Shown: positions 18,150 to 59,937 of the stretch, in pieces
Numbering within the stretch: position 1 is the stretch's first letter
Layout: every line of letters begins with the position of its first letter
IMG/VR virus record: IMGVR_UViG_3300045988_183727
DNA: 64,000 nucleotides
Origin: a virus
Reading direction: 5' to 3' (one strand)
Notes under the pieces: generated by a model
Told to the model about the DNA's origin: nothing
What the model saw: only the letters and a program-made list of their open reading frames with translations
Database searches by the model: none
Program-made: the position numbers and the translations under genes

Positions 18150-19586
18150 ATGTTTGACCTGCTCTTTGGGAACAAGGCCGTTCTCGTCCCCGCAATTATC
18201 GTGATTGCGGTCCTCATCATCTGTATTTTGGGGTATATCAAGGCGCCGCCCGATATGGCGTATATCATCTCCGGTCTTCGCAAGAAGCCCAAAATCCTCA
18301 TTGGTCGTGCCGGCGTTCGCGTTCCGTTTCTGGAGCGCGTCGATAAGCTAATTGTCCGTCAGATTTCCGTGGACATCAAATCCGATGGCTACATTCCCAC
18401 ACTGGACTTCATCGGCGTTGATGTGGATGCCGTTGCCAAGGTCCGTGTCAGGACAGATGACGAGGGCATTAAGCTGGCTATGCGGAACTTCCTGAACATC
18501 ACTGATGCCCGTGGCTTTGAGCAGGCGATTTCGGACTCTCTGCAGGGAAACATGAGAGAGATTATCGGGACTATAACGCTCAAGGAAATCTGCAATGACC
18601 GTAAGAAATTCGGTGATGAAATCCAGTCAAAGGCGCAGGTTGACATGAATGCGTTGGGTATCGAGATTATCTCCTGTAATATCCAGCGCGTGACCGACGA
18701 GAAGGGCCTTATCAATGCTCTGGGTCAGGATAATATGAGTCAAATCCAGAAAAATGCTTCTATCGCCAAGGCCGAAGCGGAGCGCGATATCCAGATTGCT
18801 CAGGCGGAGGCGGCTCGTCAGGCGAACGAGGCTCAGGTCGCATCCGATACACAGATTTCTATTCGTAAGACCGAACTGGCCGTGAAGCAGGCCGAGCTGA
18901 AGGAAACCTCCGACATCAAGAAGGCTGCTGCCGATGCTGCCTATAAGATTGAGGAACAGAAGCAGCGCCGGAGCCTCGATATTGCATCTACCGATGCCGA
19001 CATTGCGAAGCGCGAGAAGGAAGCAGAACTGGCAGAGCGTGAAATCACGCTGCAGGAGCGTCGGTTGGATGCTGATATTCGCAAGAAGGCAGATGCCGAT
19101 AAGTACGCTGCCGAAAAGAAGGCCGAAGCAGAGCTGTACGCCCGCAAGCAGGAAGCCGAGGCCAAGCGCTTCGAGCAGGAGCAGATTGCCGAAGGTATCA
19201 AGGCCGTCGGTGCCGCAGAAGCCGAGGCTATCAAGGCCAAGGCTCTGGCCGAAGCGGAAGGTATCGACCGTAAGGCTGAGGCCATGAAAAAGTACGGTGA
19301 AGCCGCAGTGGTCGAGATGATTATGAACGCACTGCCCGAAATTGCCAAGAACGTGGCCGCGCCTCTCACTAATGTGGATTCCATCACCATGTACGGCGAG
19401 GGTAACAGTACGAAGCTGATTGAGGACATCGTTTCTTCTACCACTCAGGTTTCCAACGGTATGCTGAACGGTTTGGGTATCGACCTGCGGAGCCTGCTGG
19501 CCGGCTTTGTCGGAGGCAAGGTCGCAGTTCCCGCATCTGCTCCCAGTGTTGAGCCTACCGCCGTCACTGAGGGCGAAGCCGAGTAA
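18150..19586 (+). CDS. Flotillin (SPFH domain, FloT/YuaG-like)
   Basis: N-terminal hairpin helix, SPFH domain, and a long A/E/K-rich coiled coil (AEAERDIQIAQAEAARQANEAQ...). Confidence 0.9.
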   Translation: MFDLLFGNKAVLVPAIIVIAVLIICILGYIKAPPDMAYIISGLRKKPKILIGRAGVRVPFLERVDKLIVRQISVDIKSDGYIPTLDFIGVDVDAVAKVRVRTDDEGIKLAMRNFLNITDARGFEQAISDSLQGNMREIIGTITLKEICNDRKKFGDEIQSKAQVDMNALGIEIISCNIQRVTDEKGLINALGQDNMSQIQKNASIAKAEAERDIQIAQAEAARQANEAQVASDTQISIRKTELAVKQAELKETSDIKKAAADAAYKIEEQKQRRSLDIASTDADIAKREKEAELAEREITLQERRLDADIRKKADADKYAAEKKAEAELYARKQEAEAKRFEQEQIAEGIKAVGAAEAEAIKAKALAEAEGIDRKAEAMKKYGEAAVVEMIMNALPEIAKNVAAPLTNVDSITMYGEGNSTKLIEDIVSSTTQVSNGMLNGLGIDLRSLLAGFVGGKVAVPASAPSVEPTAVTEGEAE

Positions 19587-19629: not shown

Positions 19630-19717
19630 GGAGAGGTGGCCGAGTGGTTGAAGGCACCGGTCTTGAAAACCGGCGATGCGAAAGCATCCGTGGGTTTGAA
19701 TCCCACTCTCTCCGCCA
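19630..19717 (+). tRNA. tRNA-Ser (anticodon TGA), CCA encoded
   Basis: Acceptor GGAGAGG/TCTCTCC, D-arm GTGGCCGAGTGG, anticodon loop CTTGAAA, long variable arm, T-loop GGTTTGAATCC. Confidence 0.9.
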
Positions 19718-19728
19718 AAAAAAAACAA

Positions 19729-19859
19729 GTACGGACGGTATAACCGGAATTAACGCCTGTGGAGATGCATGGTCGTCGCGGAAGCAGGAATACTCTGTTG
19801 GCTGGCAATCACGTGAGAGGTGACGACCAGCACCTTGGGGGAACTGAATACCTGTGCTG
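19729..19859 (+). ncRNA. Omega-RNA-like scaffold, copy A (structured RNA family, 5 copies)
   Basis: GTACGGACGGTATAACCGGAATTAACGCCTGTGGAGATGCATGG...GCTGG-CAA-TCAC-GTGAGAG-GTGA-CGA-CCAGC...GGGGGAAC plus the linker TGAATACCTGTGCTGG. The central hairpin covaries among copies. Confidence 0.7.
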
Positions 19860-20053
19860 GGTATACACCACCCAGAAATAGCAGGGTACTATACCACAAG
19901 ATGCCGCACGTTGAATTTGAGTGGCGGTATACACCACCCAGAAAAAAACAGGGTACTATACCATCTCATTGCACACTGGCATATACCCGTTATCGTAAAG
20001 GATATGTCACGGTTAGGGGTATACACCACCCCGAAATAACAGGGTTGTATACC
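19860..20053 (+). repeat. Hairpin-repeat mini-array A (3 repeats; CRISPR-like layout)
   Basis: Repeats at 19860-19895, 19926-19962 and 20018-20053 (GGTATACACCACCCnGAAATAACAGGGTTGTATACC). The spacers are 30 and 55 nt, and the latter contains a degenerate repeat. Confidence 0.7.
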
Positions 20054-20098
20054 TCGGTATGACGATTATATCCGAAGGAAGCTCATTATCCAAGGAAA

Positions 20099-20117
20099 GT
20101 GTGCAATGATTGCACAC
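20099..20117. repeat. Perfect palindrome GTGTGCAATGATTGCACAC preceding scaffold B (the same palindrome is at 50304-50322)
   Basis: Identical 19-nt palindrome upstream of scaffolds B and C. Confidence 0.8.
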
Positions 20118-20125
20118 TTAAAGAC

Positions 20126-20250
20126 GTACGGATGGTACAGCCGGAATTTACGCCTGTGGAGACGAACTCCGTCGTAGAAGCAGGAACTTCCCATGGCTGA
20201 ACACCGCGTGAGAGGCGGTACAGCACCGAGGTGAGAGCACCTTGGGGAAC
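20126..20250 (+). ncRNA. Omega-RNA-like scaffold, copy B (divergent, no hairpin array)
   Basis: GTACGGATGGTACAGCCGGAATTTACGCCTGTGGAGACG...GCT-GAACA-CCGC-GTGAGAG-GCGG-TAC-AGC...TTGGGGAAC. It ends 30 nt before the ATG at 20281. Confidence 0.65.
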
Positions 20251-20280
20251 AGCTTGAGTATCAAAATCGGTGGAAGGGCG

Positions 20281-20691
20281 ATGATTGTTTGTATGGCTGA
20301 TTACTTCAAAGTCGTATATTCGCGGGAGCTCTCCTCAGAATATGAACCGCGTTACATTGTCATACAGCCCAAGACTGGTGCGGTATTGGATGATGCCCAA
20401 GGTTTCGGCTACACGAGCCGCGAGAAGGCGGCAAAGGCATACACCTACAAGAAGATGCCGCATCCCGAACAGCGGTCTCTGGCGGCCCGCAAACGCCGCG
20501 TTGAGAAGTGGTGTCTGGAACACCTTGATGTGGTAGATGGTTATGCTGACATCTGCTTACAGCATATGAAGGCATCGGGAGATGGACGTATCAGTATGAG
20601 TTCTGCTGTTGTCTCCCGTTATTTGAAGGACTGCGGATACGATAATCTGCCGTTCTCGGCACAGGACTTTATCCGCTACTGTAAAACTTGA
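20281..20691 (+). CDS. Hypothetical protein (136 aa)
   Basis: The ATG at 20281 follows ggtggaaggg. The track ORF starts at an upstream TTG inside the RNA scaffold. Confidence 0.65.
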   Translation: MIVCMADYFKVVYSRELSSEYEPRYIVIQPKTGAVLDDAQGFGYTSREKAAKAYTYKKMPHPEQRSLAARKRRVEKWCLEHLDVVDGYADICLQHMKASGDGRISMSSAVVSRYLKDCGYDNLPFSAQDFIRYCKT

Positions 20692-25186: not shown

Positions 25187-27409
25187 TTAGACCTTCAACC
25201 GCTTCTTGACGATTTTGACCATTGCCTTGGGGAAGGTGGACAGGTCAGTAATGTCAAGGAACTGGTCGCCGTAAATCTTCTTGAGGTACTCTTTGTCGTC
25301 GCCAATAGCTGCTGCGACAATCTCAACACCGCGCCGGCGATTGCGGGCTACGATGTCTTTGATGTCCTTCGCCGCAGAATCTCCACCATAGGAATCATCA
25401 TTCGGCTTACCATCCGAAATGATAATGAGGAGCTTCGTGCGCTCAGGTCTCGCATTCAGCAGGTTCGCAACGACCTCCAGTGCTGCACCGTCACGGTTAC
25501 AGCCGCCAGTGGAGAGCTTGGCAAGACGGTACTTGTCACGCTTACCGGCCTTCAGGAAGTCTGTGTAGACGAACAGGTTGACCCTACCATGCATGGTCAC
25601 ATTGTGACCGTACACAGCGACAGGAACATGAACACGCTCTGCAAAGTCATGCAGGAGCATGGTAGCCTTCATAGCGGCGCCCATGCGCTGTCCGTACATC
25701 GAGCCAGACTGGTCAACCAGCACGGAAACTGCCATATCGGGCAGGTCCTGCGGCAACTTTGTGTCGCTGAAGAACCGGCAATCCGGACGCCACATTTCGC
25801 TTGCAACGATATCTCTACCGTACATTCGGTTTCTGCGGACATCGCCGTCCTGCAGGTCCTTCAACTCCTGCTGCATCAACTTTGCCAGACGCTTGGAATA
25901 CTGCGACACATCCTCCATCATTTCACCGTAGAGCTTGATGTTGGAAGGTGTTACTTCAACCTCGCGTTTGACGTCGATGCTATGGCCCTTGTGCGTAGAG
26001 CTACGGTCCATGATGTCAACATCAGCGATGATTTGAGACTTCAAATCCTGCTCCATCTGTGCTTCGGCCATGTTTCCGGCAACGGAGGAAATAATGGTCT
26101 GCAGGACATTCGCCAACATACTGTCGGCTTGCTCCTGCTTTCCGTTTTTATCCTGTCCATCGCCGCTCTTGCCGGCCACAGCAGCGGGGATGTTGCCCTT
26201 ATTGGCATCATTCCCGCCGGAACCACTACCGCTGTCGTTTTTCTTACCCTTCTTCTTGTCGGCAGACTGGGCATCCTTGGTAGCTTGCTTGGCTACGTTG
26301 GATGCCTTCTGGTTCTGAGGCATCTGAGAACCACCTCCATTCTGTGCGCCCTGAGCAATTTGCTGGAGCACCTGCTGAATGGCATTGGCGCTGGGCTGGG
26401 AGATACCTCCGCCGCCCTGCTGGTTCTGACTGCCTTGACCACCGCTGGAAGCGGGCTGTCCTTGCTGCCCGCCCTGACCGTTCTGGTCGGAGCCGGACTG
26501 CTGACCTTGCCCCTGCTGGCCTTGGCCTGCCTGAGAGCTCTGCTGCTTGTCACACTTCTCAATCGCGTCCTTAATGTAAGGCCACATAAAGAGAAGCATC
26601 ACATTGATTTGGGAATACAGCTCCTTCGGGTTATCCGTGTTGGTGGCAAGCTCAATGGTCTGCGAGATGTCTGTCAGCTTTTTGGCGTACTCATTGGTAT
26701 AGAGCGTCTGCTCATCCGCAACGAGAATTTCACCAAATCGTGCGAACTGGAGAACGAGGCTTGTCATAATAGACAGCGGCTCCTTCTTGTTGTTCGTATA
26801 GCCTTCCAGCGTGTGAAGCTGCCCCTGAAGGGAAGATGCTGCCATCTCAATACCACGAGCGACAATGCCGCCGTAGTAGTCGCTCATACGTTCCTCGTCG
26901 TGTGCGTCGATGATGCAGTTGACGAGTTCGTCTCGCAGCGACTTGAACACCTTGCGGTATTCAGGATGCTTCAGCGCCTCCTTCATCTCATCCAGCTCTG
27001 TCTCATCGTCCGGTTCAGGCATCCGTCCATAGAGTGTGCCGTTCTCTTCCAGTTCCTTGTCTGCCAGCGCATCGGCGCGAAAGTCGTGGAATCGGATGTG
27101 GGCCAACTCGTGATAGACAATACCCATGACCGTTGCGAATCGGGAGGAGGGGAGCTTATACCATGTGATGACACTGTTTGCCGTATTCTGACAAAGACTA
27201 TTCCCGTCAGTACAGGCGGTGATGTCGGATTTGGGGTTATGCATCAGAGAAACGGAGATGTGCTTGTCAAGGTCTTTCGTCATCGAATCGACCGTTGCCT
27301 GCACATGACTCCGAAACGCTTCACTGGTGTAGATGTCAGCATCTGTGAGTTTTTCGCTCATTTCCTTGGCGCCTACGCGGATTTGCCTCCAGATAGATTT
27401 CTGGTCCAT
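25187..27409 (-). CDS. CobT-like VWA-domain protein with an N-terminal HExxH motif and a Q/G-rich linker
   Basis: C-terminal MIDAS motif VLVDQSGSM...GGCNRDGAAL...IIISDGKPND. N-terminal YHELAHIRF. Low-complexity GQGQQGQGQQSGSDQNGQGGQQGQ. Confidence 0.8.
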   Translation of the reverse strand: MDQKSIWRQIRVGAKEMSEKLTDADIYTSEAFRSHVQATVDSMTKDLDKHISVSLMHNPKSDITACTDGNSLCQNTANSVITWYKLPSSRFATVMGIVYHELAHIRFHDFRADALADKELEENGTLYGRMPEPDDETELDEMKEALKHPEYRKVFKSLRDELVNCIIDAHDEERMSDYYGGIVARGIEMAASSLQGQLHTLEGYTNNKKEPLSIMTSLVLQFARFGEILVADEQTLYTNEYAKKLTDISQTIELATNTDNPKELYSQINVMLLFMWPYIKDAIEKCDKQQSSQAGQGQQGQGQQSGSDQNGQGGQQGQPASSGGQGSQNQQGGGGISQPSANAIQQVLQQIAQGAQNGGGSQMPQNQKASNVAKQATKDAQSADKKKGKKNDSGSGSGGNDANKGNIPAAVAGKSGDGQDKNGKQEQADSMLANVLQTIISSVAGNMAEAQMEQDLKSQIIADVDIMDRSSTHKGHSIDVKREVEVTPSNIKLYGEMMEDVSQYSKRLAKLMQQELKDLQDGDVRRNRMYGRDIVASEMWRPDCRFFSDTKLPQDLPDMAVSVLVDQSGSMYGQRMGAAMKATMLLHDFAERVHVPVAVYGHNVTMHGRVNLFVYTDFLKAGKRDKYRLAKLSTGGCNRDGAALEVVANLLNARPERTKLLIIISDGKPNDDSYGGDSAAKDIKDIVARNRRRGVEIVAAAIGDDKEYLKKIYGDQFLDITDLSTFPKAMVKIVKKRLKV

Positions 27410-44610: not shown

Positions 44611-45575
44611 TTGTTTTCCTCCTTAAAGTGTTCAAGTCTTTCGGAAAACTTTTGCAGCGCTTTTCTAAACTCAATTTTGCAGGTGGTTGACATGAAATAA
44701 TAGGCGGAAACAATATCTTCTGTCGTAGAGTTTTTCGCATAAAGTCGCATTGTGCTTGGCATCCCCATGAGCCAGTGTAAAGAGACGCCAAAGGCAGCCG
44801 CTATATGCGGCAGAATTCTTTCGTTGCTTGTGGAGCAGGAGGGTCTCACCAACATGATATTCGCCAACTCGTGAATGACATCCTTTTGTTTATCATCTAA
44901 TTCAAAATTGCCTTTTCCGGACTGAATCAATTCATCCAAATCGAGAATATCCTGTCGCTTAAATGAACATCTGTGGGAAAAAACGTACTGTACTCGCGCA
45001 GAAGGGCGCAGCAATAAGCTGCGTTTTTTATCATCCCAGAATTGATGTATCCACATCGTATCAATCATGCCGAGAGCGGACTCTCTTATGCATCCGTCTC
45101 TTATCGTTTCTGGAAAGCTATCTACAAGATTATAGACTTCTTGAACATCTGGCGGTAGGCTGCTGAAAGCTGGAAAGTTTTTATCTCCGAATCGAATCAT
45201 TTCCTCGTAAGATATGTCCAACTCGGCAAGAATCCGAAAAACGATTTGCCAGTTAAATCCCTGCCAGCCTATAAATCGCTGTGTTTCTCCGTTTGTAACG
45301 GGAGTTTTATCAAATAAAAGGGCTGGCAGCTTTTCTTCTGGACAATTAAGCTGTTCGGCTAACCGCAGCTTTTTCATTTCTGCCCTGTATGGCGTGGTGT
45401 CTGTGATAATGTTGTTTACTCTTGCCATGTTGCCTGCATCCTCCGCAATTCTTAATTTGCGGAGGAGCAGGACTATAGAGGTATAGACAGTTGTTGAGAC
45501 GTTTTCTCCGTACCTTATATCGTCTCCAGCTCGTGCCGGCTTTGTAGGATTTGTTCTTTTATAAATAGCACTCAT
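44607..45575 (-). CDS. Hypothetical protein (322 aa) with XRE-like HTH segments
   Basis: ILPHIAAAFGVSLHWLMG and FRILAELDISYEEMIRFG are HTH-like. Overlaps the recG stop. Confidence 0.65.
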   Translation of the reverse strand: MSAIYKRTNPTKPARAGDDIRYGENVSTTVYTSIVLLLRKLRIAEDAGNMARVNNIITDTTPYRAEMKKLRLAEQLNCPEEKLPALLFDKTPVTNGETQRFIGWQGFNWQIVFRILAELDISYEEMIRFGDKNFPAFSSLPPDVQEVYNLVDSFPETIRDGCIRESALGMIDTMWIHQFWDDKKRSLLLRPSARVQYVFSHRCSFKRQDILDLDELIQSGKGNFELDDKQKDVIHELANIMLVRPSCSTSNERILPHIAAAFGVSLHWLMGMPSTMRLYAKNSTTEDIVSAYYFMSTTCKIEFRKALQKFSERLEHFKEENK

Positions 45576-47647
45576 TTTCTTGATGCCTCCTTTGCGGTAT
45601 TGTCGGTCTCCTGACCTCCCGCGATTATGGAATCGACCATTTTGCAGGAACCTTTTCCTCTGTTCAAAAGTGTCTTTGCGTCCTCCTTTGCCTGTTCGTA
45701 CTCAGCGGGGTATGCCATCATAAGGGTCATATATCGGTTCCATCCGGATTGTTCTGTGCCGAGGAAATCTCCGGCACCTCTAATGCGGAGGTCCGCCTCT
45801 GCAATTTCAAACCCGTTATTGGTCTGTACCATGGCGTTCAGTCTCTCCATCGCAGCCGGCGTGGGCGACGCGCCTGCTTCCAGCACACAATAGGACTGTA
45901 CGCTGCTCCGCCCTACACGCCCTCTCAACTGGTGCAGACTGGAAAGCCCGAAACGGTCCGCGTTTACAATGACCATCATTGTCGCGGTAGGGACATTTAC
46001 GCCAACCTCCACAACGGTTGTACTGACAAGCACATCTACTTGACCATCCTTGAATCGCGAGAGAATGTCCTCCGTTTCTGTCTTTCCCATCTTGCCTGTT
46101 ACTGTTTCGATGCGGACGCCATACGGCTCCAGAACAGAACGGTATTCTGCGCTGACCTCCTCGACAGACTGTACGCCTTCCAGTTTTTCGCTTCTATCAA
46201 TAAGCGGACAGACAACATAGGTTTGATACCCCTTTTGTTTCTGCAGCAGAATGAAGCGAAAGATTTTTTCTTTACTTGTGGCAATACCGGTAATAACTGG
46301 AAGACGTCCGTCCGGCATCGTTTTAATGGTGTGGAGCTGCACGGTATCCCCATAAATTACCTGAGCCAGACTGCGGGGGATGGGGGTGGCAGACATAGTA
46401 ATAGAATGAACACCGCCTGAAGCCTTTTCGATGAGCGCTGTACGCTGGTCAACGCCAAACTTGTGTTCCTCATCCGTTACGGTTAAGGCGAGATTTTTAT
46501 ACTCCACATCTTCTCCAATGATGGACTGTGTTCCAACAATGAGCTGTGCCTTGCCTTCCTTGATGGCGGCCAAGGCTTTTTTCTTTTCGCTCGTCTTCAA
46601 ATCGCTGCCAAGCCAAACAACACTTACGTCAAACGGTTCCGCCAGAGCAGAGAGGTCCTCGTAGTGCTGACGCGCCAACACCAGCGTTGGAGCCATCACC
46701 GCTGCCTGATACCCATTCTCAGCCATGGTCATCATAAGGCAAAAGGCAACGATGCTCTTTCCACAACCGACATCACCCTGCACAAGCGCGTTGATGCGAT
46801 GCCCGTCTGCTGCAAATTGAGTCATGCTCTCAATCGCGTCCATCTGGTCTTTTGTGAGAGAATAGGGCAGGGACTTCTTAATCTTTTCAATCCAGCCGTT
46901 TGTTTTGACGGAGAATTGGCTACCTTTAGAAATCTTTCGTGCGGCCCATTCGTTAGCCATAGCAAAATATACGAGGTCTTCCTGAAGGAGTCGGGATTGA
47001 CCATCCTTAATATCCTGCTCGGAAACGGGGAAGTGCAGCTTCTTGAGTGAAGTCCAAAGGCTTGAAAGACCTTTTTTGTCGAGGAAATCATTGGGAAGCG
47101 TTTCAATAAGTCCGATAGTTCTGTCGGAAGCCTCCTGAATCTTTTCTCTCAGGTAGGCATCGCTCACGCCTCCGATTTGAGCGTACACAGGACGAATGCC
47201 CGGTGCCTGCCCATAGGCAGGCTCGAAAATCTCCGGTGCCGTCATGGTGTAGTTGTTGTATTTCTCGCTGTATCCGACCTTTCCAGCCACATAAACCTCC
47301 TGCCCTGTGCAAGTGGAAATCTTGCGGAAGAGGTAGTTTTGCCGGAACCATGTAATAACGAGTTTTTCTCCGCTTGGAAGCACCGTGCAGTGTGCGATAA
47401 TCATAGGGACATGAGAGGAAGTCTGCACATAAGAACCCTTATAGCGCAGTTCTTGGCCGAAGGACTTCACTTCGTCTACACGTACAAGACAAGCCTGCTC
47501 CGCACCATCTATGAGATGCGTTGCAAGCTGCCGGTAGTCCTTATAGCTTTTTGGGATATAACGCAGAAGGTCTTCTGCTGAGTGGATACCTTTTTTCTCG
47601 AAACGCTTTTCCTTTTGTGCGTTTACTCCAATGACGGATAGCTTCAT
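45572..47647 (-). CDS. recG: ATP-dependent DNA helicase RecG
   Basis: Wedge domain plus SF2 helicase: GDVGCGKS (Walker A), VTDEEHKFGV (DEEH), QLRGRVGR. The internal ATG at 47647 follows ggaggtgagaacatat. Confidence 0.9.
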   Translation of the reverse strand: MKLSVIGVNAQKEKRFEKKGIHSAEDLLRYIPKSYKDYRQLATHLIDGAEQACLVRVDEVKSFGQELRYKGSYVQTSSHVPMIIAHCTVLPSGEKLVITWFRQNYLFRKISTCTGQEVYVAGKVGYSEKYNNYTMTAPEIFEPAYGQAPGIRPVYAQIGGVSDAYLREKIQEASDRTIGLIETLPNDFLDKKGLSSLWTSLKKLHFPVSEQDIKDGQSRLLQEDLVYFAMANEWAARKISKGSQFSVKTNGWIEKIKKSLPYSLTKDQMDAIESMTQFAADGHRINALVQGDVGCGKSIVAFCLMMTMAENGYQAAVMAPTLVLARQHYEDLSALAEPFDVSVVWLGSDLKTSEKKKALAAIKEGKAQLIVGTQSIIGEDVEYKNLALTVTDEEHKFGVDQRTALIEKASGGVHSITMSATPIPRSLAQVIYGDTVQLHTIKTMPDGRLPVITGIATSKEKIFRFILLQKQKGYQTYVVCPLIDRSEKLEGVQSVEEVSAEYRSVLEPYGVRIETVTGKMGKTETEDILSRFKDGQVDVLVSTTVVEVGVNVPTATMMVIVNADRFGLSSLHQLRGRVGRSSVQSYCVLEAGASPTPAAMERLNAMVQTNNGFEIAEADLRIRGAGDFLGTEQSGWNRYMTLMMAYPAEYEQAKEDAKTLLNRGKGSCKMVDSIIAGGQETDNTAKEASRK

Positions 47648-47770
47648 ATATGTTCTCACCTCCGTGTGGTGGGAAAATGTTAGGGTGTCGGGGTGCTTTT
47701 CGTGAACTACTCGGCAATAAATCACCGAGGATTCTTGCTTACTTCTTATAAAGAGGGCTTACACACCCTT

Positions 47771-47989: not shown

Positions 47990-48300
47990 TAACAGCGTGG
48001 ACAGGGCAAGAAAGGCTCGTTCGAAGGGCTCGTGCCTAAAATGACAATATTCTTGCGATTGTAAGAATAAGCGCCTAAATTGCCCGTCCCGTTTTCTTCT
48101 TTCTTTAATTACACTCATAAGCACAATAAAGTCAGCTCCCTGAGGGAAGTGTGCGGGAGTTGCTTCGACTTTCGCGTTGTTCTCCATGCGGGGAGGTTCT
48201 GGCGGTTCGAGTCCGCACGACGCGCCTTCTGTTTTCGCTGCTTCTATCTTCACCTCCGTCTTTTTAACGAGCAGCGGACACAGAAACATCTCTCAATATG

Positions 48301-48379
48301 ATAGCGTAGCATAACTGGTAATGCCGTACCTCTCTCACAGGTAACGATATGTTGGTTCAACTCCAGCCGCTATTGCCAG
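48301..48379 (+). tRNA. Atypical tRNA-like gene, probable anticodon CTC (Glu), CCA encoded
   Basis: Acceptor GATAGCG/CGCTATT, D-arm GCAT-AACTGGTA-ATGC, anticodon stem TACCT/AGGTA with loop CTCTCAC, T-arm GTTGG-TTCAACT-CCAGC. There is one extra nt between the D and anticodon stems and a 7-nt variable loop. Confidence 0.5.
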
Positions 48380-48484
48380 CCGGCGTTCTACCCACCCCGC
48401 CGACATCAACTCTCTTCGGCGCTGGCGGCCTCCGTGCAGACGGGATTACACGTGATAAGCGGAGGCTGCCAGCACCACCAAAAT

Positions 48485-48560
48485 GCTGGTGTAGCTCAGT
48501 AGGCAGAGCGGCGCACTCGTAACGCGCAGGTCGTGGGTTCGACCCCCACCGTCAGCTCCA
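48485..48560 (+). tRNA. tRNA-Thr (anticodon CGT), CCA encoded
   Basis: GCTGGTG...TAGCTCAGTAGG...anticodon loop CTCGTAA...GGTTCGACCCC...CGTCAGC-T-CCA. Confidence 0.85.
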
Positions 48561-48652
48561 TTCCATACTCATTCTCCTTCAAGTGAAGCCCCCGTGTAAC
48601 AGGTCTTTTGAAAAGTGCTTTCAGCCTCGTTGTGCGGGGGCTTCACGACTAT

Positions 48653-48728
48653 GCTGATGTAGCTCAGTTGGCAGAGCGGCGGATTTGTAAACCGCAGGTC
48701 GGGGGTTCAAGGCCCTCCATCAGCTCCA
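48653..48728 (+). tRNA. tRNA-Thr (anticodon TGT), CCA encoded
   Basis: GCTGATG TAGCTCAGTTGG...anticodon loop TTTGTAA...GGTTCAAGGCC...CATCAGC-T-CCA. Confidence 0.85.
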
Positions 48729-48763
48729 TTAAAACCATGTGCTTTTGTGGTGTTTTTATATGC

Positions 48764-48840
48764 GCGGATGTCGTCTAATTTGGTGAGACACCAGCCTTCC
48801 AAGCTGGTCATTGCGGGTTCGAGTCCCGTCGTCCGCTCCA
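48764..48840 (+). tRNA. tRNA-Gly (anticodon TCC), CCA encoded
   Basis: GCGGATG...anticodon stem CCAGC/GCTGG with loop CTTCCAA...GGTTCGAGTCC...CGTCCGC-T-CCA. Confidence 0.85.
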
Positions 48841-49229: not shown

Positions 49230-50288
49230 ATGCCAACTACATTTCAAGCGTTTAAGTATCGCATTTACCCGACTGATGAGCAGGTCGAAATCATTGAAAA
49301 GACTTTCAAGTGCTGCCGGTTTGTGTGGAACCATTTCCTTGAGCGAACCTCCAAAATCTATGACCGTCGGCAGGAAAAGATGACGACCTTCGACTGTATG
49401 AAGGTTCTCACGGAGATGCGGGAGCGCTGGCCTTGGCTTGCGGACTGCGGCTGTACGGCAGAGAGATATGCCATCATTGATTTGTTTGAGGCGCGAAAGG
49501 CGTTCTTCCGCCGCATTAAAGCGGGGGAGAAGCCCGGTTATCCCAAATTTAAGGGCGCGTCCCATCCGACACAGAGTTTTACGACCGCTGGTACTATCTA
49601 TGTGACGGACGATTACATTCAGGTTCCGTTTGGAGGACAGTATCAGAAAATCAACAAGCTCAGGCGAGGGACGGGGCGCCCCATCGAAGGGTCTCCCCGC
49701 GAGGTCACTATTTCTCGGTCTGCTACCGGAAAATACTGGGCATCTGTCTGCTGTAAAGTAGAGCGAGACACGCTGCCTATTGTGGACGGCGAGGTGGGAA
49801 TCAGTCTCGGCCTGAAGGAGTTGGCTATTGACAGCAACGGCGTTCACTATGAGAACCCGAAGCATCTGAGCAAGTCTGCAAAGCGGTTGGCACGTGAGCA
49901 GCGGCGTCTATCCCGCAAGAAGAAGGGCTCTGTCAACTACGAGAAGCAGCGGCGCAAGGTAGCCGGCGTCCATGAGCATATTGCCAATCAGCGCAATGAC
50001 TACCGGCATAAAATCAGCCGTGAACTTGTCAACGCAAACCAGCTTATTGCCGTTGAGAAGGTGGCCGTTAAGCCCTTAGTTGAGGGCAATGAGCAGGCTA
50101 AAAGCATCCTCGATGCCGGCTGGTCTGAACTTACCGGTATGATAAAGTATAAGGCGGACTGGGCTGGACGCACTCTGGTGGACGTAGATACCGCCACCGT
50201 AGCACCGGAAGCCAAGCATGATGAGGCACTGGCACAGGTCGTGCTGTCCGAAGGTCAGCGCATGGCTTCCGAGCAGAAGCCTGCCTAA
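49230..50288 (+). CDS. TnpB-like protein, predicted nuclease-dead and C-terminally truncated (TldR-like); could alternatively be a decaying tnpB
   Basis: N-terminal FKYRIYPTDEQ (OrfB/TnpB). RuvC-I reads VGISLGLK where the family consensus has GIDLG (D to S). RuvC-II has IAVEKV. The ORF stops after KADWAGRTLVDVD, before the zinc finger and RuvC-III. ATG at 49230 follows aaaggacgg. Confidence 0.8.
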   Translation: MPTTFQAFKYRIYPTDEQVEIIEKTFKCCRFVWNHFLERTSKIYDRRQEKMTTFDCMKVLTEMRERWPWLADCGCTAERYAIIDLFEARKAFFRRIKAGEKPGYPKFKGASHPTQSFTTAGTIYVTDDYIQVPFGGQYQKINKLRRGTGRPIEGSPREVTISRSATGKYWASVCCKVERDTLPIVDGEVGISLGLKELAIDSNGVHYENPKHLSKSAKRLAREQRRLSRKKKGSVNYEKQRRKVAGVHEHIANQRNDYRHKISRELVNANQLIAVEKVAVKPLVEGNEQAKSILDAGWSELTGMIKYKADWAGRTLVDVDTATVAPEAKHDEALAQVVLSEGQRMASEQKPA

Positions 50289-50303
50289 AGCCGAGCGAGG
50301 AAA

Positions 50304-50322
50304 GTGTGCAATGATTGCACAC
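50304..50322. repeat. Palindrome GTGTGCAATGATTGCACAC (second copy)
   Basis: Identical to 20099-20117. It lies between the tnpB-like stop and scaffold C. Confidence 0.8.
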
Positions 50323-50344
50323 ATTGCCAAGGAAATAAAAACGA

Positions 50345-50473
50345 GTACGGACGGTATAGCCGGAATTAACGCCTGTGGAGATGCATGGTCGTCGTGGAAG
50401 CAGGAATACTCTGTTGGCTGGTAGTCACGTGAGAGGTGGCACCAGCGCTTTGGGGAACTGAATACCTGTGCTG
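50345..50473 (+). ncRNA. Omega-RNA-like scaffold, copy C (cognate position 57 nt downstream of the TnpB-like gene)
   Basis: Same family as A, B, D and E. Central hairpin GCTGG-TAG-TCAC-GTGAGAG-GTGG-CA-CCAGC, ending GGGGAAC plus TGAATACCTGTGCTGG. Confidence 0.75.
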
Positions 50474-50563
50474 GGTATACACCACCCGGAAATAACAGGG
50501 TTGTATACCAATTCATGGCGTCTCCTTTTGGTATACACCACCCGGAAATAACAGGGTTTTACC
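50474..50563 (+). repeat. Hairpin-repeat mini-array C (2 repeats, 20-nt spacer)
   Basis: Repeats at 50474-50509 and 50530-50563. The spacer is AATTCATGGCGTCTCCTTTT. Confidence 0.7.
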
Positions 50564-50663
50564 ATTCGTAATTATAGTTCTTCCCTCCGCTGTGTGGAGC
50601 GTTTTGTCGAAATGACAAAACATTCCTCTTAAATTCTTAAAAACAAGAAAGGAAATAAAGAAT

Positions 50664-51242
50664 ATGGAACCTTCTATCAACAGAACTCTCACCGTCAGCG
50701 TCGTCAGCTATGGCGTCGTATCTGTCGTCAATGGAGTCATCAACGTTGACAACCAGAACCCCATCGAGTTTCCCGCCGTGCTGGACGAGGCATCCGCTGC
50801 CAAGCTGCTGAAGAGCAGATACGGCGGCAAGCTGTTCCCCGTGGATGCAAATATCGTCGTGTCTTCCATCCGGCATGAGAAGTGGAAGTTCTCTATGGAC
50901 CTGAGCCAGTTCGTCGCTACCGCTGCCCGCAGCCGTGTGGACGGCACCGCATCCGAGGCCGACGATGCCCCCGCAGAGGACATCCCCGCCACTGAACCTG
51001 CTGTTCCCGCGCCTGAGACGACTCCCGCTGCTTCTCCTACTATCCCCATGCCTCTGGTCTCTGAGCCTGAGGAGGATTTTGCGCCTGCTACTCCCGAAGC
51101 GCCTGCTCCCACCGGTGGTTTCGCTCCTGAGACTCCCACTCCTGCACCTGATGCTCCCGCCAAGGAAGTTCCCTATGGTGGTAACTTCAATTTCCCCTCT
51201 GACTTCGGTGGCGACTTCGGTTCCGGCTTTTTCGGCGGTTAA
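50664..51242 (+). CDS. Hypothetical protein with a Pro/Ala/Glu-rich disordered tail (192 aa)
   Basis: ATG follows agaaaggaaataaagaat. The tail ends ...GGNFNFPSDFGGDFGSGFFGG. Confidence 0.65.
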   Translation: MEPSINRTLTVSVVSYGVVSVVNGVINVDNQNPIEFPAVLDEASAAKLLKSRYGGKLFPVDANIVVSSIRHEKWKFSMDLSQFVATAARSRVDGTASEADDAPAEDIPATEPAVPAPETTPAASPTIPMPLVSEPEEDFAPATPEAPAPTGGFAPETPTPAPDAPAKEVPYGGNFNFPSDFGGDFGSGFFGG

Positions 51243-51791: not shown

Positions 51792-51811
51792 CGCTAAATA
51801 CCTAAAAGCAA

Positions 51812-51942
51812 GTACGGACGGTATAACCGGAATTAACGCCTGTGGAGATGCATGGTCATCGTGGAAGCAGGAATGCTCTGTTAGCTGGTTTTCATGTGAG
51901 AGATGATGCCAGCAGCTAAGGGAACTGAATATGCCTGTGTTG
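51812..51942 (+). ncRNA. Omega-RNA-like scaffold, copy D
   Basis: Central hairpin GCTGG-TTT-TCAT-GTGAGAG-ATGA-TG-CCAGC (TCAT/ATGA covaries with TCAC/GTGA). Linker TGAATATGCCTGTGTTGG. Confidence 0.7.
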
Positions 51943-52155
51943 GGTGTATGAGGCCCTGAAATGACAGGGGTGTATACCATATAATCTGTCGCTTGAGGAG
52001 ACAGGCGTATAGAGCCCAGAAATAACAGGGTTGTATACCCCTTAACCGCGCTCCAACTTTCAATCCTAAGGTGTATAAGGGCCTGAAATAACGGGGTGAT
52101 ACCTCAGTTATTCCTTTTAGGTACATAACGGGCTAAAACAACAGGGTAGTGTACC
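51943..52155 (+). repeat. Hairpin-repeat mini-array D (4 repeats)
   Basis: Repeats at 51943-51978, 52005-52039, 52071-52103 and 52121-52155. Spacers are 26, 31 and 17 nt. The 3' arm CAGGGTTGTATACC is conserved while the 5' arm varies but keeps pairing. Confidence 0.7.
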
Positions 52156-52743: not shown

Positions 52744-53252
52744 TGTATATGTCTCAGAAAGAGTTCAACGCTATGATGAAGAAAAACCCCCGCCTCCGTG
52801 TTCACGGTGCAAATAACAATACCCGCGAACATCGCTCCAAAGCGAATAAGGCGGCAAAATATAGAAATGTAAAGGTCTACGAGTATGCCGATGGGCTGGC
52901 TTTTTTCGGTAAGCCCCGCAATAATGGTGAAATCCCTATCGCTGTCTTTGACAGCAAGAAGGAGTACCACCGCTGGAAAGAGCTTCAGATTTTGGAGCGC
53001 GGCGGACATATCCACGACCTTCGCCGGCAGGTGCCTTTGACCATCATTACCGAGTTCGAGTATCGTGGTCAGAAGGTCTCCGGTATTACTTACAAAGCCG
53101 ACGCCGTCTATGTGCGCGACGGCAAGTGTGTGGTAGAGGACGTGAAGCCCTTCGATACCACAACGCAGAAGTATCGAACTACAAAGGATTTCAACCTCAA
53201 GTGGAAGCTGCTCAAGGCTGAATATCCTACTTGGTCTTTTGAAATCTATTAA
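52743..53252 (+). CDS. DUF1064-family protein (phage-type, nuclease-fold)
   Basis: KYRNVKVYEYADGLAFFGKPRN..., FDSKKEYHRWKELQILERGGHI..., ITYKADAVYVRDGKCVVEDVKP... follows the DUF1064 pattern. The start overlaps the upstream stop (TAATG). Confidence 0.65.
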   Translation: MYMSQKEFNAMMKKNPRLRVHGANNNTREHRSKANKAAKYRNVKVYEYADGLAFFGKPRNNGEIPIAVFDSKKEYHRWKELQILERGGHIHDLRRQVPLTIITEFEYRGQKVSGITYKADAVYVRDGKCVVEDVKPFDTTTQKYRTTKDFNLKWKLLKAEYPTWSFEIY

Positions 53253-53258
53253 AAACGA

Positions 53259-53390
53259 GTACGGATGGTATAACCGGAATTAACGCCTGTGGAGATGCAT
53301 GGTCGTCGTGGAAGCAGGAATACTCTGTTGGCTGGTAATCATGTGAGAGATGATACCGGCACCTTTGGGGAACTGAATATGCCTGTGTCG
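53259..53390 (+). ncRNA. Omega-RNA-like scaffold, copy E
   Basis: Central hairpin GCTGG-TAA-TCAT-GTGAGAG-ATGA-TA-CCGGC, whose U-G pair is only allowed on the + strand RNA. Linker TGAATATGCCTGTGTCGG. Confidence 0.7.
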
Positions 53391-53533
53391 GGTATATAGA
53401 ACCCTGAAACGACAGGGTTGTGTATCACAGAATAACTGCGGCAGCGGCATATATGGCTCTGAAACAACAGGGTTGTATACCGCATAAAAAAGGCTATGGT
53501 GTGTAATACCCTGAAATAACAAGGTTGTGTACC
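53391..53533 (+). repeat. Hairpin-repeat mini-array E (3 repeats)
   Basis: Repeats at 53391-53426, 53447-53481 and 53499-53533. Spacers are 20 and 17 nt. Confidence 0.7.
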
Positions 53534-55659: not shown

Positions 55660-57144
55660 ATGACGATGGTCTATGTGCAAAATAAAGACGGTAAACCTTT
55701 GATGCCGACAACTCGCTATTGTTATGTGCGCCTTCTCCTGAAGGAGAAGAAAGCACGAGTTGTTTGCACTACCCCGTTTACCATCCAGTTGAACTATGAT
55801 ACCCCAGACATCACCCAAGACTTGATTCTTGGCATCGACCCCGGCAGAACGAACATTGGTGTCGCTGTCGTCAAGGAGGACGGCCAATGCGTGTTCTCCG
55901 CACATCTGGAGACGCGCAATAAGGACGTACCTCTTCTGATGCAGAAGCGTGCCGGTTTCCGTAAGCAGCATCGCACGTTGGACCGGCGCCGCAAGCGCCA
56001 GCGTCGTGCGAAGGCTGCTGGGACCACCGTTGCCGGGGGTTCTGTCGAGAGATTGCTCCCCGGCTATGAGAAGCCCATTGTGTGCCACCATATCCGCAAT
56101 AAGGAGGCGCGGTTCAATAACCGTAGCCGCCCTGTGGGATGGTTGACACCTACAGCAAATCACCTGCTGCAAACCCACATCAACCTGATTGCAAAGGTTG
56201 CGAAGTTCTTACCTATCACGAAAGTGGTGGTGGAGCTGAACCGCTTTGCATTCATGGCGATGGATAATCCCAATATCCGTCGGTGGGAGTACCAGCAGGG
56301 GCCGTTGTACGGACTGGGTTCCGTGGAGGATGCGGTGTACGCACAGCAGGATGGACATTGCCTGTTCTGCAAGAAGCCCATTGACCATTACCATCATGTT
56401 GTTCCACGCCACAAGGGTGGAAGTGAGACGCTGGCTAACCGGTGTGGGCTTTGTGCGAAGCATCACGACCTCGTCCATAAGGACAAGGCGTGGGCGGATA
56501 AGCTGGTCACACGCAAGGAAGGTATGAATAAAAAGTACCACGCCTTGAGTGTTCTGAACCAGATTATCCCGCATCTCATGGAGTATCTCGGAGGCGAGAC
56601 TCTCTACGATGTCTATGCCACGGATGGTAAGTCCACCAAGGGCTTCCGCGTTGCCAAGAACGTGCCGAAAGAACATTACACGGATGCCTACTGTATCGCC
56701 TGTTCCATTTTGGATGCGAATACGAAGGTCTCCACACCTGCCGAACCCTTTAAGCTGAAGCAGTTCCGTCGGCACGACCGGCAATCCTGCATCCGCCAAA
56801 TGGTTGACCGGAAGTACCTTCTGGATGGCAAGGTCGTTGCAGCAAACCGGCATAAGGCCATTGAGCAAAAGTCCGATAGCCTGCAGGAGTTCCGTGAGGC
56901 TTACGGCGATGCTGCGGTATCGCAGCTCACCGTGAAACCTCACTCGCCCCAGTACAAGGACATGACTCGTATCATGCCGGGGGCGGTGATGGATTTCGGT
57001 GGCGCTGTCGGGATTCTTCAGGGGTCGGAAGGCTTCCATAACGGCAAGCCGGACTACTATAAATCTACGAAAGGAGAACGGGTTTTAACGAGGAGATGTG
57101 CGCTTCTCGCACAGAACGCAGGCATGGTTTTCATTCCCGCCTGA
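55660..57144 (+). CDS. iscB: IscB RNA-guided nuclease (PLMP, RuvC, bridge helix and HNH)
   Basis: DGKPLMPT (PLMP), [14 protein letters not shown] (RuvC-I), Arg-rich [25 protein letters not shown]...[38 protein letters not shown] (RuvC-III). 494 aa. Confidence 0.9.
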
Positions 57145-58359: not shown

Positions 58360-59937
58360 ATGCCTACAGAAAGAAAGAAGAAAACAACAAAAGAAGAAAA
58401 CGCAAAAAATAACTCAACAAAAAACACAATAAAAAAACCAAGAAACTCAACAAGTAACACGAAAAGCAAGAAAGAAAGCAAGTCTCTTTTGGGGTTAAAG
58501 GACCTGATGGAAGATACGTCTCCAGAAAAAGTCGTCGGCTGTTATGTTCGTGTATCTACCGATGCACAGGCGGAGCAGGGATATTCTATACCTGACCAAA
58601 CAGCCAAATTGCAGGCCTTTTGTACCGTAAAAGGCTGGGAGAACGCGAAATTCTACACGGACCCCGGATTCAGCGGCAGCAACTTAAATCGACCGGCAAT
58701 GCAGGAAATGATATCCGATGCGATGGAAGGGAAGCTGAAGGCGGTTGTCGTCTTCAAGCTGGACCGTCTCTCCAGAAGTCAGAAGGATACTCTTTATTTA
58801 ATTGAGGATGTGTTTCTTCCGAACGAAGTGGATTTTGTAAGCATTTCCGAGGCCCTTGACACTACCACTCCATATGGACGAGCGATGATAGGTATTTTGA
58901 GCGTCTTCGCCCAGTTGGAACGCGAGAATATCTATATGCGAACCCGTATTGGAATGATGGGTCGTGTAAGCGCGGGGTATTGGCGTGGCGGCGGAAACGT
59001 TCCGTTTGGCTATGATTATGACAAGACAAGCAAATCCCTTATCCCAAATGCTGACGCGCCAAAAGTGCCACAGGCTTACGACCTCTACATCAAGGGCTAT
59101 AGTTGCCAGAAAATTGCGGATATGCTCGGACTAAGTAGCGAACAGCTCGTGAGGAATATTCTCACCAAGCGCACATATTGCGGCTACATCAACTACAAAG
59201 GCAAAGACTACAAGGGTTTCCACGAGCCTTTGATTGATGAAGAGCGGTTCATGCTCGTGGCTGCAGAAATGGAACGCCGTGGGAAGGAAAACCTCGCAGT
59301 CTGCGGCAACAATAAATATTATCTTCTTACCGGGCTTGTTTTCTGCGGAGATTGTGGCGCCAGAATGCGGTACATGAAGTGGGGGAAGTATATCCGTATC
59401 GTCTGCTACTCGCACACGTGTAAAAAGAACATGGTTAAGGACCCCGATTGTCCAAACAAGGGCGTTCGCGCAGATGAACTTGAGAAGGTTGTTATCTCAA
59501 AACTTTTTGACATTGGTACTGACATTTCTCTCGACGATTTTGACGACACCCACGTGCCTGCAAGTGCAGCAGAAATCCTGACGAACCGGATAGATGAGCT
59601 GAAGGAGTCTCTCAGGCGCCTATATGGGCTCTATGCCGACATCGGAGACCCCATGGTGTACGAGCGCATTGAGGATGTGCGAGGACAGCTCCACGTATTG
59701 CAGAGACAGCTTGCAAGCGAGGAAACGCAGAAACTCAAGGAAGAGCACATCAACTACGTCCGTGAGAAAATTCAGACTATTGGAGACCTCTGGCCCCATC
59801 TTACTCCTATGGAGCGCCAAACTCTTGTTCGTGATTGTGTTGAGAAGGTTATTTTGCATCACAACGGACGTGTTGAGGTTTACTACACTTTCCATACTGA
59901 GAAAGATAGTAAAATTCTCAAAAGGAAAGGCGCATAA
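58360..59937 (+). CDS. Large serine recombinase with a Lys-rich N-terminal extension
   Basis: Resolvase catalytic CYVRVSTDAQAEQGYSIPDQ, recombinase domain, zinc ribbon CGDCGARM...CYSHTC, and a coiled-coil C-terminus. An alternative start is at 58507. Confidence 0.9.
   Translation: MPTERKKKTTKEENAKNNSTKNTIKKPRNSTSNTKSKKESKSLLGLKDLMEDTSPEKVVGCYVRVSTDAQAEQGYSIPDQTAKLQAFCTVKGWENAKFYTDPGFSGSNLNRPAMQEMISDAMEGKLKAVVVFKLDRLSRSQKDTLYLIEDVFLPNEVDFVSISEALDTTTPYGRAMIGILSVFAQLERENIYMRTRIGMMGRVSAGYWRGGGNVPFGYDYDKTSKSLIPNADAPKVPQAYDLYIKGYSCQKIADMLGLSSEQLVRNILTKRTYCGYINYKGKDYKGFHEPLIDEERFMLVAAEMERRGKENLAVCGNNKYYLLTGLVFCGDCGARMRYMKWGKYIRIVCYSHTCKKNMVKDPDCPNKGVRADELEKVVISKLFDIGTDISLDDFDDTHVPASAAEILTNRIDELKESLRRLYGLYADIGDPMVYERIEDVRGQLHVLQRQLASEETQKLKEEHINYVREKIQTIGDLWPHLTPMERQTLVRDCVEKVILHHNGRVEVYYTFHTEKDSKILKRKGA

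Follow-up and report, generated by a model that had tools for sequence, protein, structure and literature searches.

The 64,000-nt stretch of DNA analyzed here (IMG/VR virus record IMGVR_UViG_3300045988_183727; referred to as the window) carries a gene for a 352-aa TnpB-like protein that is predicted to be inactive as a nuclease. The gene is followed on the same strand by a scaffold, which descends from a transposon omegaRNA and runs directly into a small array of repeats and spacers, and three further fusions of this kind are found in the window. We consider it probable (about 0.6) that these parts form a cleavage-deficient, type V-like CRISPR system, which is borne by a mobile element and directed against rival elements. 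This estimate refers to the mechanism as a whole, and our confidence in the sequence-level facts, namely a dead protein kept by selection, scaffold-array fusions and foreign protospacers, is much higher. The system appears to be TldR-like (TnpB-like nuclease-dead repressor) in its protein and CRISPR-like in its guides.

The TnpB-like protein and its locus

49230..50288, + strand: gene for a nuclease-inactivated TnpB-like protein (TldR-like, or miniature dCas12-like effector) of 352 aa, assigned by Pfam, alignment to ISDra2 TnpB and an AlphaFold2 (AF2) model
48300..48840, + strand: tRNA cluster (Glu-CTC, Thr-CGT, Thr-TGT, Gly-TCC) upstream of the gene

The open reading frame (ORF) at 49230-50288 is uninterrupted on the + strand, and its product begins with MPTTFQAFKY. 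The homology to TnpB/IS605-OrfB on which the original prediction was built was borne out, as the protein matches the Pfam families HTH_OrfB_IS605 (E = 1.6e-17) and OrfB_IS605 (E = 3.1e-25) and its best natural match of solved structure in a phmmer search was ISDra2 TnpB (8bf8/8h1j; E = 1.9e-49). Since the AF2 model (pLDDT 81.4) superposes on ISDra2 TnpB 8exa with a TM score of 0.79-0.81 in Foldseek, the TnpB fold is predicted to be kept. The protein accordingly has both the domains of the TnpB/IS605 OrfB superfamily (HTH_OrfB and OrfB_IS605, with WED, REC and RuvC) and its fold. The best PADLOC models for the protein were Cas12f and Cas12u; a PADLOC match named 'Csx1' was rejected because it fell on this same ORF.

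In RuvC domains, three acidic residues co-ordinate two metal ions. The phmmer alignment places GISLGLKELAI of the query on GVDVGIKDFAI of ISDra2, with Ser192 at the RuvC-I aspartate (D191 in ISDra2), a column that is occupied by Asp in all 14 of the 14 full-length relatives; the exchange of D for S had been read correctly from the sequence. The RuvC-II glutamate is retained (E276, in 'AVEKV'; alignment to ISDra2 TnpB). The ORF had been thought to end right after KADWAGRTLVDVD (...GRTLVDVD), which proved incorrect, as 32 further residues, TATVAPEAKHDEALAQVVLSEGQRMASEQKPA, extend it. This tail aligns in frame with the end of the full-length relatives, ...G(A)xxDRDENAAKNILTEGLRMLAA (DRDENAAKNILTEGLRMLAA), and for this reason the zinc finger (FFPSSQxCSxCG...CPxCG) is considered to have been lost by an in-frame deletion of ~30 aa and not by truncation. 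RuvC-III is degenerate rather than missing: DRDxNAAxNI has become KHDEALAQVV, with an Asp (D331) still in the catalytic column. The claim that both the zinc finger and RuvC-III are absent thus stood for the zinc finger, with a different cause, and did not stand for RuvC-III. A Cas12f1-like TNB/zinc-finger model was covered only at positions 1-24 of 60, with a score under the model cutoff. The protein has neither the intact D-E-D triad nor the CxxC...CxxC zinc finger of an active transposon nuclease, and loss of nuclease activity is predicted.

In a protein search, relatives of equal length came up with identities of 99%, 88% and 79%, none of them having the TNB domain, and the closest full-length TnpBs reached only 51-53% identity. 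The gene is carried by 25 IMG/VR contigs at one syntenic position, and each of the 22 distinct alleles is open (22/22) and has GISLG and the same tail. When the window allele was compared with the class at 88% identity, dS was 1.04-1.11, dN 0.078-0.090 and dN/dS 0.075-0.086, and pairs within one class gave a dN/dS of 0.03-0.12. Because 22 alleles are open and dN/dS is ~0.08 at a dS of ~1, the dead form has been maintained for a long time by strong purifying selection. The thought raised with the original prediction, that the shortened form might be conserved in orthologues under purifying selection rather than being a unique frameshifted pseudogene, is supported by these alleles.

A mobile insertion sequence (IS) would have left and right ends, multiple copies or contexts and often a tnpA gene; the present gene is a single copy at a fixed locus, and no transposase was called beside it at the syntenic position in the IMG/VR contigs that carry it. 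Its conserved neighbours are a RecG-like helicase gene and tRNA genes upstream and the same small ORFs downstream, and the tRNA cluster that had been noted beside it consists of four tRNA genes. TldRs are described as having a dead RuvC domain and a C-terminal loss of zinc finger (ZnF) and RuvC parts, and as being kept by selection (bioRxiv 10.1101/2023.11.30.569447). Loss of a RuvC residue kept by selection, conserved neighbours that are not transposon genes and lost mobility are all found here, so that the likeness to TldR held for protein architecture, selection and immobility. It failed for the guide, because a single adjacent guide RNA (gRNA) with one fixed guide to a host or cognate promoter flanked by a target-adjacent motif was not found.

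Further dead relatives were seen. The allele P0003 (L002:10001-11047) is a recombinant whose residues ~50-170 are nearly identical to an active TnpB of the P0011-like kind described below and whose C-terminal half is the dead RuvC of the window type (dN/dS of 0.33 against the window allele). A second dead clade, P0026 (L188:1387-2349; also P0022), consists of 320-aa proteins with 45% identity in which TIRRDD replaces GIDxG. Its ORF ends shortly past the last RuvC strand and is followed by a short omegaRNA-like remnant (L188:2350-2480) without a repeat array; P0026 may be a classical fixed-guide TldR. P0078 (L004-L006) is a dead relative truncated at the N-terminus, with GVCLGV at RuvC-I, a deleted zinc finger and a long Lys-rich tail, and its gene is preceded by another tnpB fragment and separated by 36 nt from an HU-like gene downstream.

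Scaffold RNAs and repeat-spacer arrays

50301..50322, + strand: palindromic hairpin AAAGTGTGCAATGATTGCACAC, 12 nt past the stop codon and also present 5' of the array-less scaffold (20096-20117); from the sequence and the alignment of scaffold instances
50335..50473, + strand: scaffold A, omegaRNA-derived (tracr-like), fused to the first repeat of array A (nhmmer E = 4e-61)
50474..50561, + strand: array A, two repeats (50474-50509 and, degenerate, 50530-50561) and a 20-nt spacer (50510-50529)
51801..51942, + strand: scaffold B, stand-alone, without an adjacent tnpB gene (nhmmer E = 3.7e-59)
51943..52155, + strand: array B, four repeats and spacers 51980-52003 (24 nt), 52040-52069 (30 nt) and 52103-52119 (17 nt)
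53249..53390, + strand: scaffold D, stand-alone (nhmmer E = 5e-60)
53391..53533, + strand: array D, three repeats and spacers 53426-53445 (20 nt) and 53482-53497 (16 nt)
19719..19859, + strand: scaffold C, which begins 2 nt past the end of tRNA-Ser (19630-19717) (nhmmer E = 2.8e-57)
19860..20053, + strand: array C, three repeats, spacer 19896-19925 (30 nt) and a 55-nt interval (19963-20017)
20096..20252, + strand: array-less, diverged scaffold copy, with a 5' hairpin at 20096-20117 and the scaffold at 20124-20252 (nhmmer E = 7.5e-19)

The non-coding block downstream of the gene is repeated elsewhere in the window. Its 129 nt at 50336-50464 recur at 51803-51931 with 86% identity and without a tnpB gene, and a 27-nt core occurs four times, always on the + strand (19746, 50362, 51829 and 53276; 0 expected by chance). 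In IMG/VR the core was found in 43 stretches that belong to one contig family only, with a maximum of six per contig.

In unrelated viral contigs, a profile built from 24 scaffold copies matches the 50-90 nt that immediately follow full-length tnpB genes, on the sense strand (E = 4.5e-5 to ~0.08), the matching part being the 5' half of the scaffold. Furthermore, the scaffold and the omegaRNA of the mobile P0011-like ISs, whose right end was set by four independent insertions, have TACGG..GCCG.AA.TTACGCCTGTGGAGA...GAAGCAGGAAT in common. A hybrid RNA gene (L030:8001-8205) combines a 5' half from the array scaffold with a 3' half from a P0011-like IS omegaRNA, joined at GAAGCAGGAAT; it terminates at the IS right end and has no repeat array. 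On the basis of the profile matches 3' of tnpB, the common motif and the hybrid locus, we conclude that the scaffold is an omegaRNA descendant. The region downstream of P0005 (L003), the closest full-length relative, gave no useful alignment with the scaffold, and Rfam at gathering thresholds reported tRNAs only. In another frame, the conserved non-coding stretch past the stop codon reads 'GIAGINACGD..KQE', which we take to be the type of peptide encoded by omegaRNA sequence at the ends of longer TnpBs and which we treat as a lead only.

In the consensus fold, the 5' end of the scaffold pairs with the segment that precedes the first repeat, and there are four internal stems. In total, 97.2% of this fold is paired as compared to 33-49% when the partners are slid, and doubly changed cells number 15 as compared to 5.2 +/- 2.6 in shuffles. 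Many of the pairs are G-U pairs that are valid on the + strand only, which places the scaffold RNA on that strand. At scaffold C, the tRNA-Ser(TGA) gene is followed by an A-run and, ~10 nt on, by the GTACGG core, and this junction recurs in several related contigs. The direct succession of tRNA and scaffold and the recurrence of the junction suggest that tRNA-linked transcription or processing could produce the 5' end of scaffold C. The array-less copy stops just upstream of an unannotated reading frame with an ATG at 20283 (seen in the sequence only), and its 3' flank has no second match within the window.

Apart from this diverged fifth copy, every scaffold runs directly into a repeated 36-nt unit, GGTATACACCACCCGGAAATAACAGGGTTGTATACC. 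A repeat profile located 12 units in the window, in the four arrays listed above. Array A begins 186 nt past the stop codon of the tnpB-like gene on the same strand and is followed by terminator-like hairpins (50585-50621); at this locus, related elements have 1-6 repeats and differ in their scaffold-proximal spacers. The 30-nt spacer of array B is conserved in 24 family loci. The arrays of the window are small and hold mostly old, shared spacers (20, 24, 30, 17, 20 and 16 nt), in addition to one 30-nt proximal spacer and the 55-nt interval.

Across the fetched loci of the family we found 169 arrays with 1-7 repeats each, 159 of which have a scaffold directly upstream (7 lie at a locus edge and 3 have none). 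Of the 112 distinct spacers in these arrays, 54 are 30 nt long, which is the mode, and 74 measure 29-31 nt. The arrays show the constant 36-nt repeat and the unique spacers of near-constant length of a type V CRISPR array, the window itself contributing two 30-nt spacers only. Elements with a 99% identical protein hold different spacers at the same locus, and this variation is polarised, the scaffold-proximal end differing and the far end being common. Examples, given as spacer numbers, are 3-4-5 in L002 as compared to 18-19-3-4-5 in L017, 21-27-24 in L030 as compared to 25-26-21-27-24 in L022, and 20-21-27-24 as compared to 47-20-21-27-24. Among distinct arrays, the first spacer is of full length in 41/49 and the last in 26/49, and terminal repeats are degenerate. 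To judge by these comparisons, the arrays behave as a CRISPR array does that gains spacers at one end.

Towards its 3' end, the repeat is similar to the final ~40 nt of the P0011-like IS omegaRNA, which are followed by the guide (...GGGTTGTATACC in the repeat, ...AAGGTTGAATATCC in the omegaRNA); as 40 of 2000 shuffles score equally high, this likeness is suggestive only. It would fit a repeat that arose by duplication of the guide-adjacent omegaRNA segment.

Two observations concern the neighbourhood of these RNAs. The P0011-like TnpB ISs (an 885-member cluster) in L097-L100, each with tnpB at 1501-2616, are flanked by direct duplications of 8-10 nt (GAGCAACAG, GATATAAT, GGTTCTGG and CACAACAACA), which are preceded by TTGGG or GGG; to our knowledge, target duplications are not expected from the peel-and-paste transposition of IS200/IS605 elements. 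Directly after array A, positions 50664-51242 encode a 192-aa protein with a low-complexity C-terminal half rich in Pro, Ala and Thr and without a family match, and its start is conserved in related elements despite the varying intergenic arrays ahead of it.

Spacer targets, proposed mechanism and alternatives

A BLAST search of the spacers against GenBank phages found one target record, MT835962.1, a 14.7-kb human faecal virome scaffold. Three spacers from three contigs (L061, L080/L095 and L088) match it with 1, 1 and 3 mismatches, the chance expectation being ~4e-7 per spacer for a 30-mer with at most one mismatch in 2.3 Gb. The three protospacers lie within 225 bp on one strand. Together they take in the stretch just upstream of a small HTH_17 excisionase-type gene, the ribosome-binding site and start codon of this gene, and its 3' part ~60 bp ahead of the start of a tyrosine integrase. 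A contig end of the uncultured Clostridiales metagenome-assembled genome UMGS1457 carries this target element as well, its integrase being 100% identical and its protospacers the same; no relative of the integrase was found in IMG/VR.

A metagenome scan with the core of spacer 19896-19925 returned seven arrays and one true protospacer (L180, 4568-4597), which is matched at 30/30 positions by a variant spacer and at 28/30 by the window spacer, both mismatches being distal. A 122-aa ORF contains this protospacer and is closely followed downstream by a 340-aa ORF and an FtsK/SpoIIIE-type ATPase, with XRE-type regulators next to them; the layout points to an integrative conjugative or mobilisable element. 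Thus, four protospacers represent foreign-derived spacers with a 5' flank, as in type V systems. All four (4/4), in two integrative elements, have G at position -1, a sample too small for a motif beyond -1, and the arrays themselves have C at this position (repeat end ...TATACC). G versus C at -1 would be a simple rule to separate non-self from self. All four matches are also in the sense of the target coding strand, the orientation in which dCas12a-type roadblocks work best; this is a lead only. The spacers that match the MT835962.1 and L180 targets occupy positions 1, 2 and 5 of their arrays.

Other searches were negative. No spacer of at least 20 nt matches outside arrays in the window or the fetched family loci, and the guides of the window have neither a 12-nt exact match nor a 16-nt match with at most two mismatches elsewhere in the 64 kb. 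Self-targeting was rejected, since no spacer or guide and no flank of the array-less scaffold matches elsewhere in the window. Two window spacers scanned against IMG/VR were found in arrays only, and ~80 spacers had no match among the PLSDB plasmids.

Regarding the effector, only one of the 59 ORFs of the window, the TnpB-like gene itself, matches Cas12/TnpB models, and 23 of the 24 repeat-bearing IMG/VR contigs also carry this gene. The locus has the single RuvC/TnpB-family effector and the downstream array on the same strand that are typical of type V. The repeat is absent from GTDB representative genomes, which argues against the arrays being mini-arrays that borrow a host CRISPR system. 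The most economical reading of this arrangement is that the dead TnpB would serve as the array effector. No strong match to Cas1, Cas2 or Cas4 was found among the 59 ORFs when the best 25 of 42 PADLOC families were considered; many V-U, V-M and V-K loci have no adaptation module (PMC10691335).

We propose that each array would be transcribed together with its own scaffold, one of which may owe its 5' end to tRNA processing. The dead protein would bind the scaffold and the repeat-spacer RNA, recognise complementary DNA flanked by G and remain bound without cutting, thereby keeping rivals that share the host from being transcribed or replicated. Such a block could act, for example, at the excisionase/integrase promoter and start codon, and the silencing logic would be that of Cas12m or of type IV systems on plasmids. 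Either distal spacers would act in trans with the scaffold, or the first guide, fused to the scaffold, would alone be fully active. If the first guide alone were active, the presence of a scaffold copy at every array and the decay of distal spacers would be understandable; the target-matching spacers, however, occupy array positions 1, 2 and 5.

A more far-reaching proposal is held tentatively and with clearly lower confidence. In this proposal the system, built on the 352-aa dead TnpB, would be self-contained and still adapting, with polarised spacer gain by a capture route that needs no Cas1-Cas2. It would silence excision and conjugation genes of rivals, and with a complete omegaRNA scaffold still fused to every array it would stand, as a living form, between a fixed-guide transposon RNA and a CRISPR array.

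Several observations weigh against a cleavage-deficient CRISPR-like system. The link between protein and arrays is a genomic one only, and the inspection for cas genes covered the 64 kb of the window, whereas the element may reach ~190 kb. An active-looking TnpB IS of the P0011-like kind is also present in part of the family, and the hybrid scaffold occurs at one locus, so that another nuclease may use the arrays. E276 and possibly the RuvC-III Asp D331 persist in the predicted dead site. No anti-repeat was seen in the scaffold, and a sigma-70 scan found no convincing scaffold promoter (6 sites as compared to 5.0 by chance). Finally, only 4 of ~100 spacers have a target, and the spacers of the window are mostly 16-24 nt long, old and unmatched.

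Among the alternatives, a classical TldR comes first and is rather unlikely: the protein would be a fixed-guide factor that represses a host promoter or one of its own element, and the arrays would be there by chance or would provide only a small number of fixed regulatory guides. Such a role would suit the TldR architecture of the protein, the distal spacers of 15-20 nt, which fall in the guide range of TnpB and TldR and are conserved across the family, and the intergenic position of the arrays just upstream of + strand genes. The array-less scaffold at 20124-20252 and the related dead clade P0026, with its scaffold remnant and no array, point the same way. However, none of the guides matches a second site within the 64 kb of the window, proximal spacers differ between elements with a 99% identical gene, and four spacers match foreign integrative elements.

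It is also unlikely that the arrays guide another, active TnpB or Cas12 of the element or the host, with the dead protein acting as an array regulator, a decoy or an anti-defence factor. Contig 181874 and at least one further member of the family do have a full-length P0011-like TnpB gene, ~1.2 kb upstream of the dead one, the hybrid scaffold has the 3' half of an IS omegaRNA, and spacers gained in a polarised way imply a machinery that did not turn up in the window. Yet the window has no second TnpB/Cas12 match, an array scaffold stands directly after the dead gene, where an omegaRNA belongs, and the co-occurrence of gene and repeat described above, together with the absence of the repeat from GTDB representatives, speaks for the dead gene. 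Moreover, purifying selection demands a function for the dead protein, and RNA binding would be the most economical one.

We regard it as very unlikely that the protein is a very small active type V nuclease with a non-canonical active site made up of Ser192, E276 and D331. All 14 full-length relatives and ISDra2 have the RuvC-I Asp, the protein has lost the whole zinc-finger/TNB module and, from RuvC-III, the NAAxNI part, and the role of the three acidic residues in co-ordinating the two metal ions is well established. The retained E276 and the Asp aligned to the RuvC-III column would favour such an enzyme, and array-associated variants with a non-canonical RuvC-I have been reported, e.g., V-U24 (PMC10691335). 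That the locus is a decaying IS200/IS605 remnant, consisting of a pseudogene and leftover right-end repeats, is highly improbable: its TnpB ancestry, the missing catalytic parts and the scaffold copies scattered over the element would suit decay, but 22/22 intact alleles with a dN/dS of ~0.08 at a dS of ~1 already contradict it, as do the in-frame deletion of the zinc finger and the uniform 30-nt spacers with polarised gain and matches to foreign elements.

The family to which the window belongs consists of mobile elements of gut Clostridia that are listed as viral by IMG/VR. Capsid, terminase and tail families had no match in the 64-kb window, and megablast of window positions 44-56 kb against GenBank phages gave no match. 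The following genes were identified, in addition to one for a PemK/MazF-like toxin:

37-4800: 1587-aa TQ/SpaA adhesin
8891-11206: TopB-like topoisomerase
18150-19586: SPFH/flotillin protein
25187-27409, - strand: VWA/CobT-like protein
45572-47725, - strand: RecG-like helicase
55660-57144: HNH endonuclease
58360-59937: large serine integrase

An element with this gene content could be conjugative or plasmid-like.

Comparison with known systems

TldRs (Wiegand et al., bioRxiv 10.1101/2023.11.30.569447; Xiao et al., 10.64898/2026.09.22.753285) and the present protein are both recent derivatives of IS200/IS605 TnpB. They resemble each other in the loss of RuvC residues and of C-terminal ZnF/RuvC parts, in being immobile genes on a mobile element or prophage, in an omegaRNA-derived guide RNA just downstream and in the DNA binding without cleavage that is predicted for them. 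The described TldRs use one gRNA with a fixed 9-16-nt guide to a conserved host promoter (fliC, oppA). In contrast, the present elements have several scaffold copies, each leading an array, and spacers of ~30 nt that turn over and match foreign integrative elements, and an association with fliC, oppF or csrA is not seen here.

In function, the locus comes closest to the nuclease-inactive type V systems of mobile elements (V-M/Cas12m, V-C and the predicted V-O and V-P). A block of transcription has been demonstrated for V-M and V-C and is predicted for V-O and V-P (PMC11656645, PMC12669027), and the notion of competing elements in these papers would also suit the locus. The present system would be like these in having an array-guided RuvC-family effector that does not cut, in being borne by a mobile element with no adaptation genes seen nearby and in its spacers against rivals, and its polarised turnover, with new spacers at one end, is that of type V arrays. 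Unlike Cas12m, its effector has ~350 aa instead of ~600 aa, is ~50% identical to active TnpBs and has no zinc finger, and unlike Cas12m loci it has a full omegaRNA-like scaffold fused to each array and many dispersed small arrays instead of one locus. The protein does not fall into the Cas12m clade, given its 352 aa and the ranks 29-34 of Cas12m2 structures in Foldseek, at 8-11% identity.

TranC (LaTranC, PDB 9jfo) and the TnpB-sized V-U/Cas12f-like effectors (PMC10691335) are likewise members of the TnpB lineage that have acquired arrays, and such arrays are thought to arise by duplication of omegaRNA segments (PMC10691335). Foldseek gave an E-value of 5.6e-14 to 9jfo, and the likeness in sequence to TranC/V-U is distant (phmmer E = 1e-11 over 80 residues). 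Those effectors are active nucleases, whereas here the nuclease is inactivated and the scaffold is physically fused to the array. Virus-encoded CRISPR mini-arrays (PMC11656645) are also short, lie on a mobile element and have spacers against competing elements, but the known ones copy a host repeat and rely on host Cas proteins, in contrast to a system whose repeat is absent from GTDB representatives and which has its own scaffold and, probably, its own effector.

The arrangement was not found described in the literature searched, and the V-U groups of PMC10691335 could include such loci. It is set apart from the known systems by a TnpB-sized effector without ZnF, a scaffold for every array, dispersed mini-loci and polarised spacer gain without visible adaptation genes. 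The lines of TnpB domestication are usually treated apart, fixed-guide dead factors (TldR) on the one hand and array-guided type V effectors on the other. The present locus would join both, as it combines a nuclease-dead protein that is ~50% diverged from active TnpBs with arrays that are led by a whole omegaRNA-like scaffold. If the proposed mechanism is true, the locus would be a natural snapshot of omegaRNA segments becoming CRISPR repeats and a test case for spacer gain without visible adaptation genes. It would also be an example of competition among mobile elements of the human gut in which integrative elements are targeted at their excisionase/integrase and conjugation modules, and the protein would be a very small (352 aa) natural DNA-binding effector with an apparently minimal need for a 5' flank, which would make it attractive for CRISPRi-type tools.

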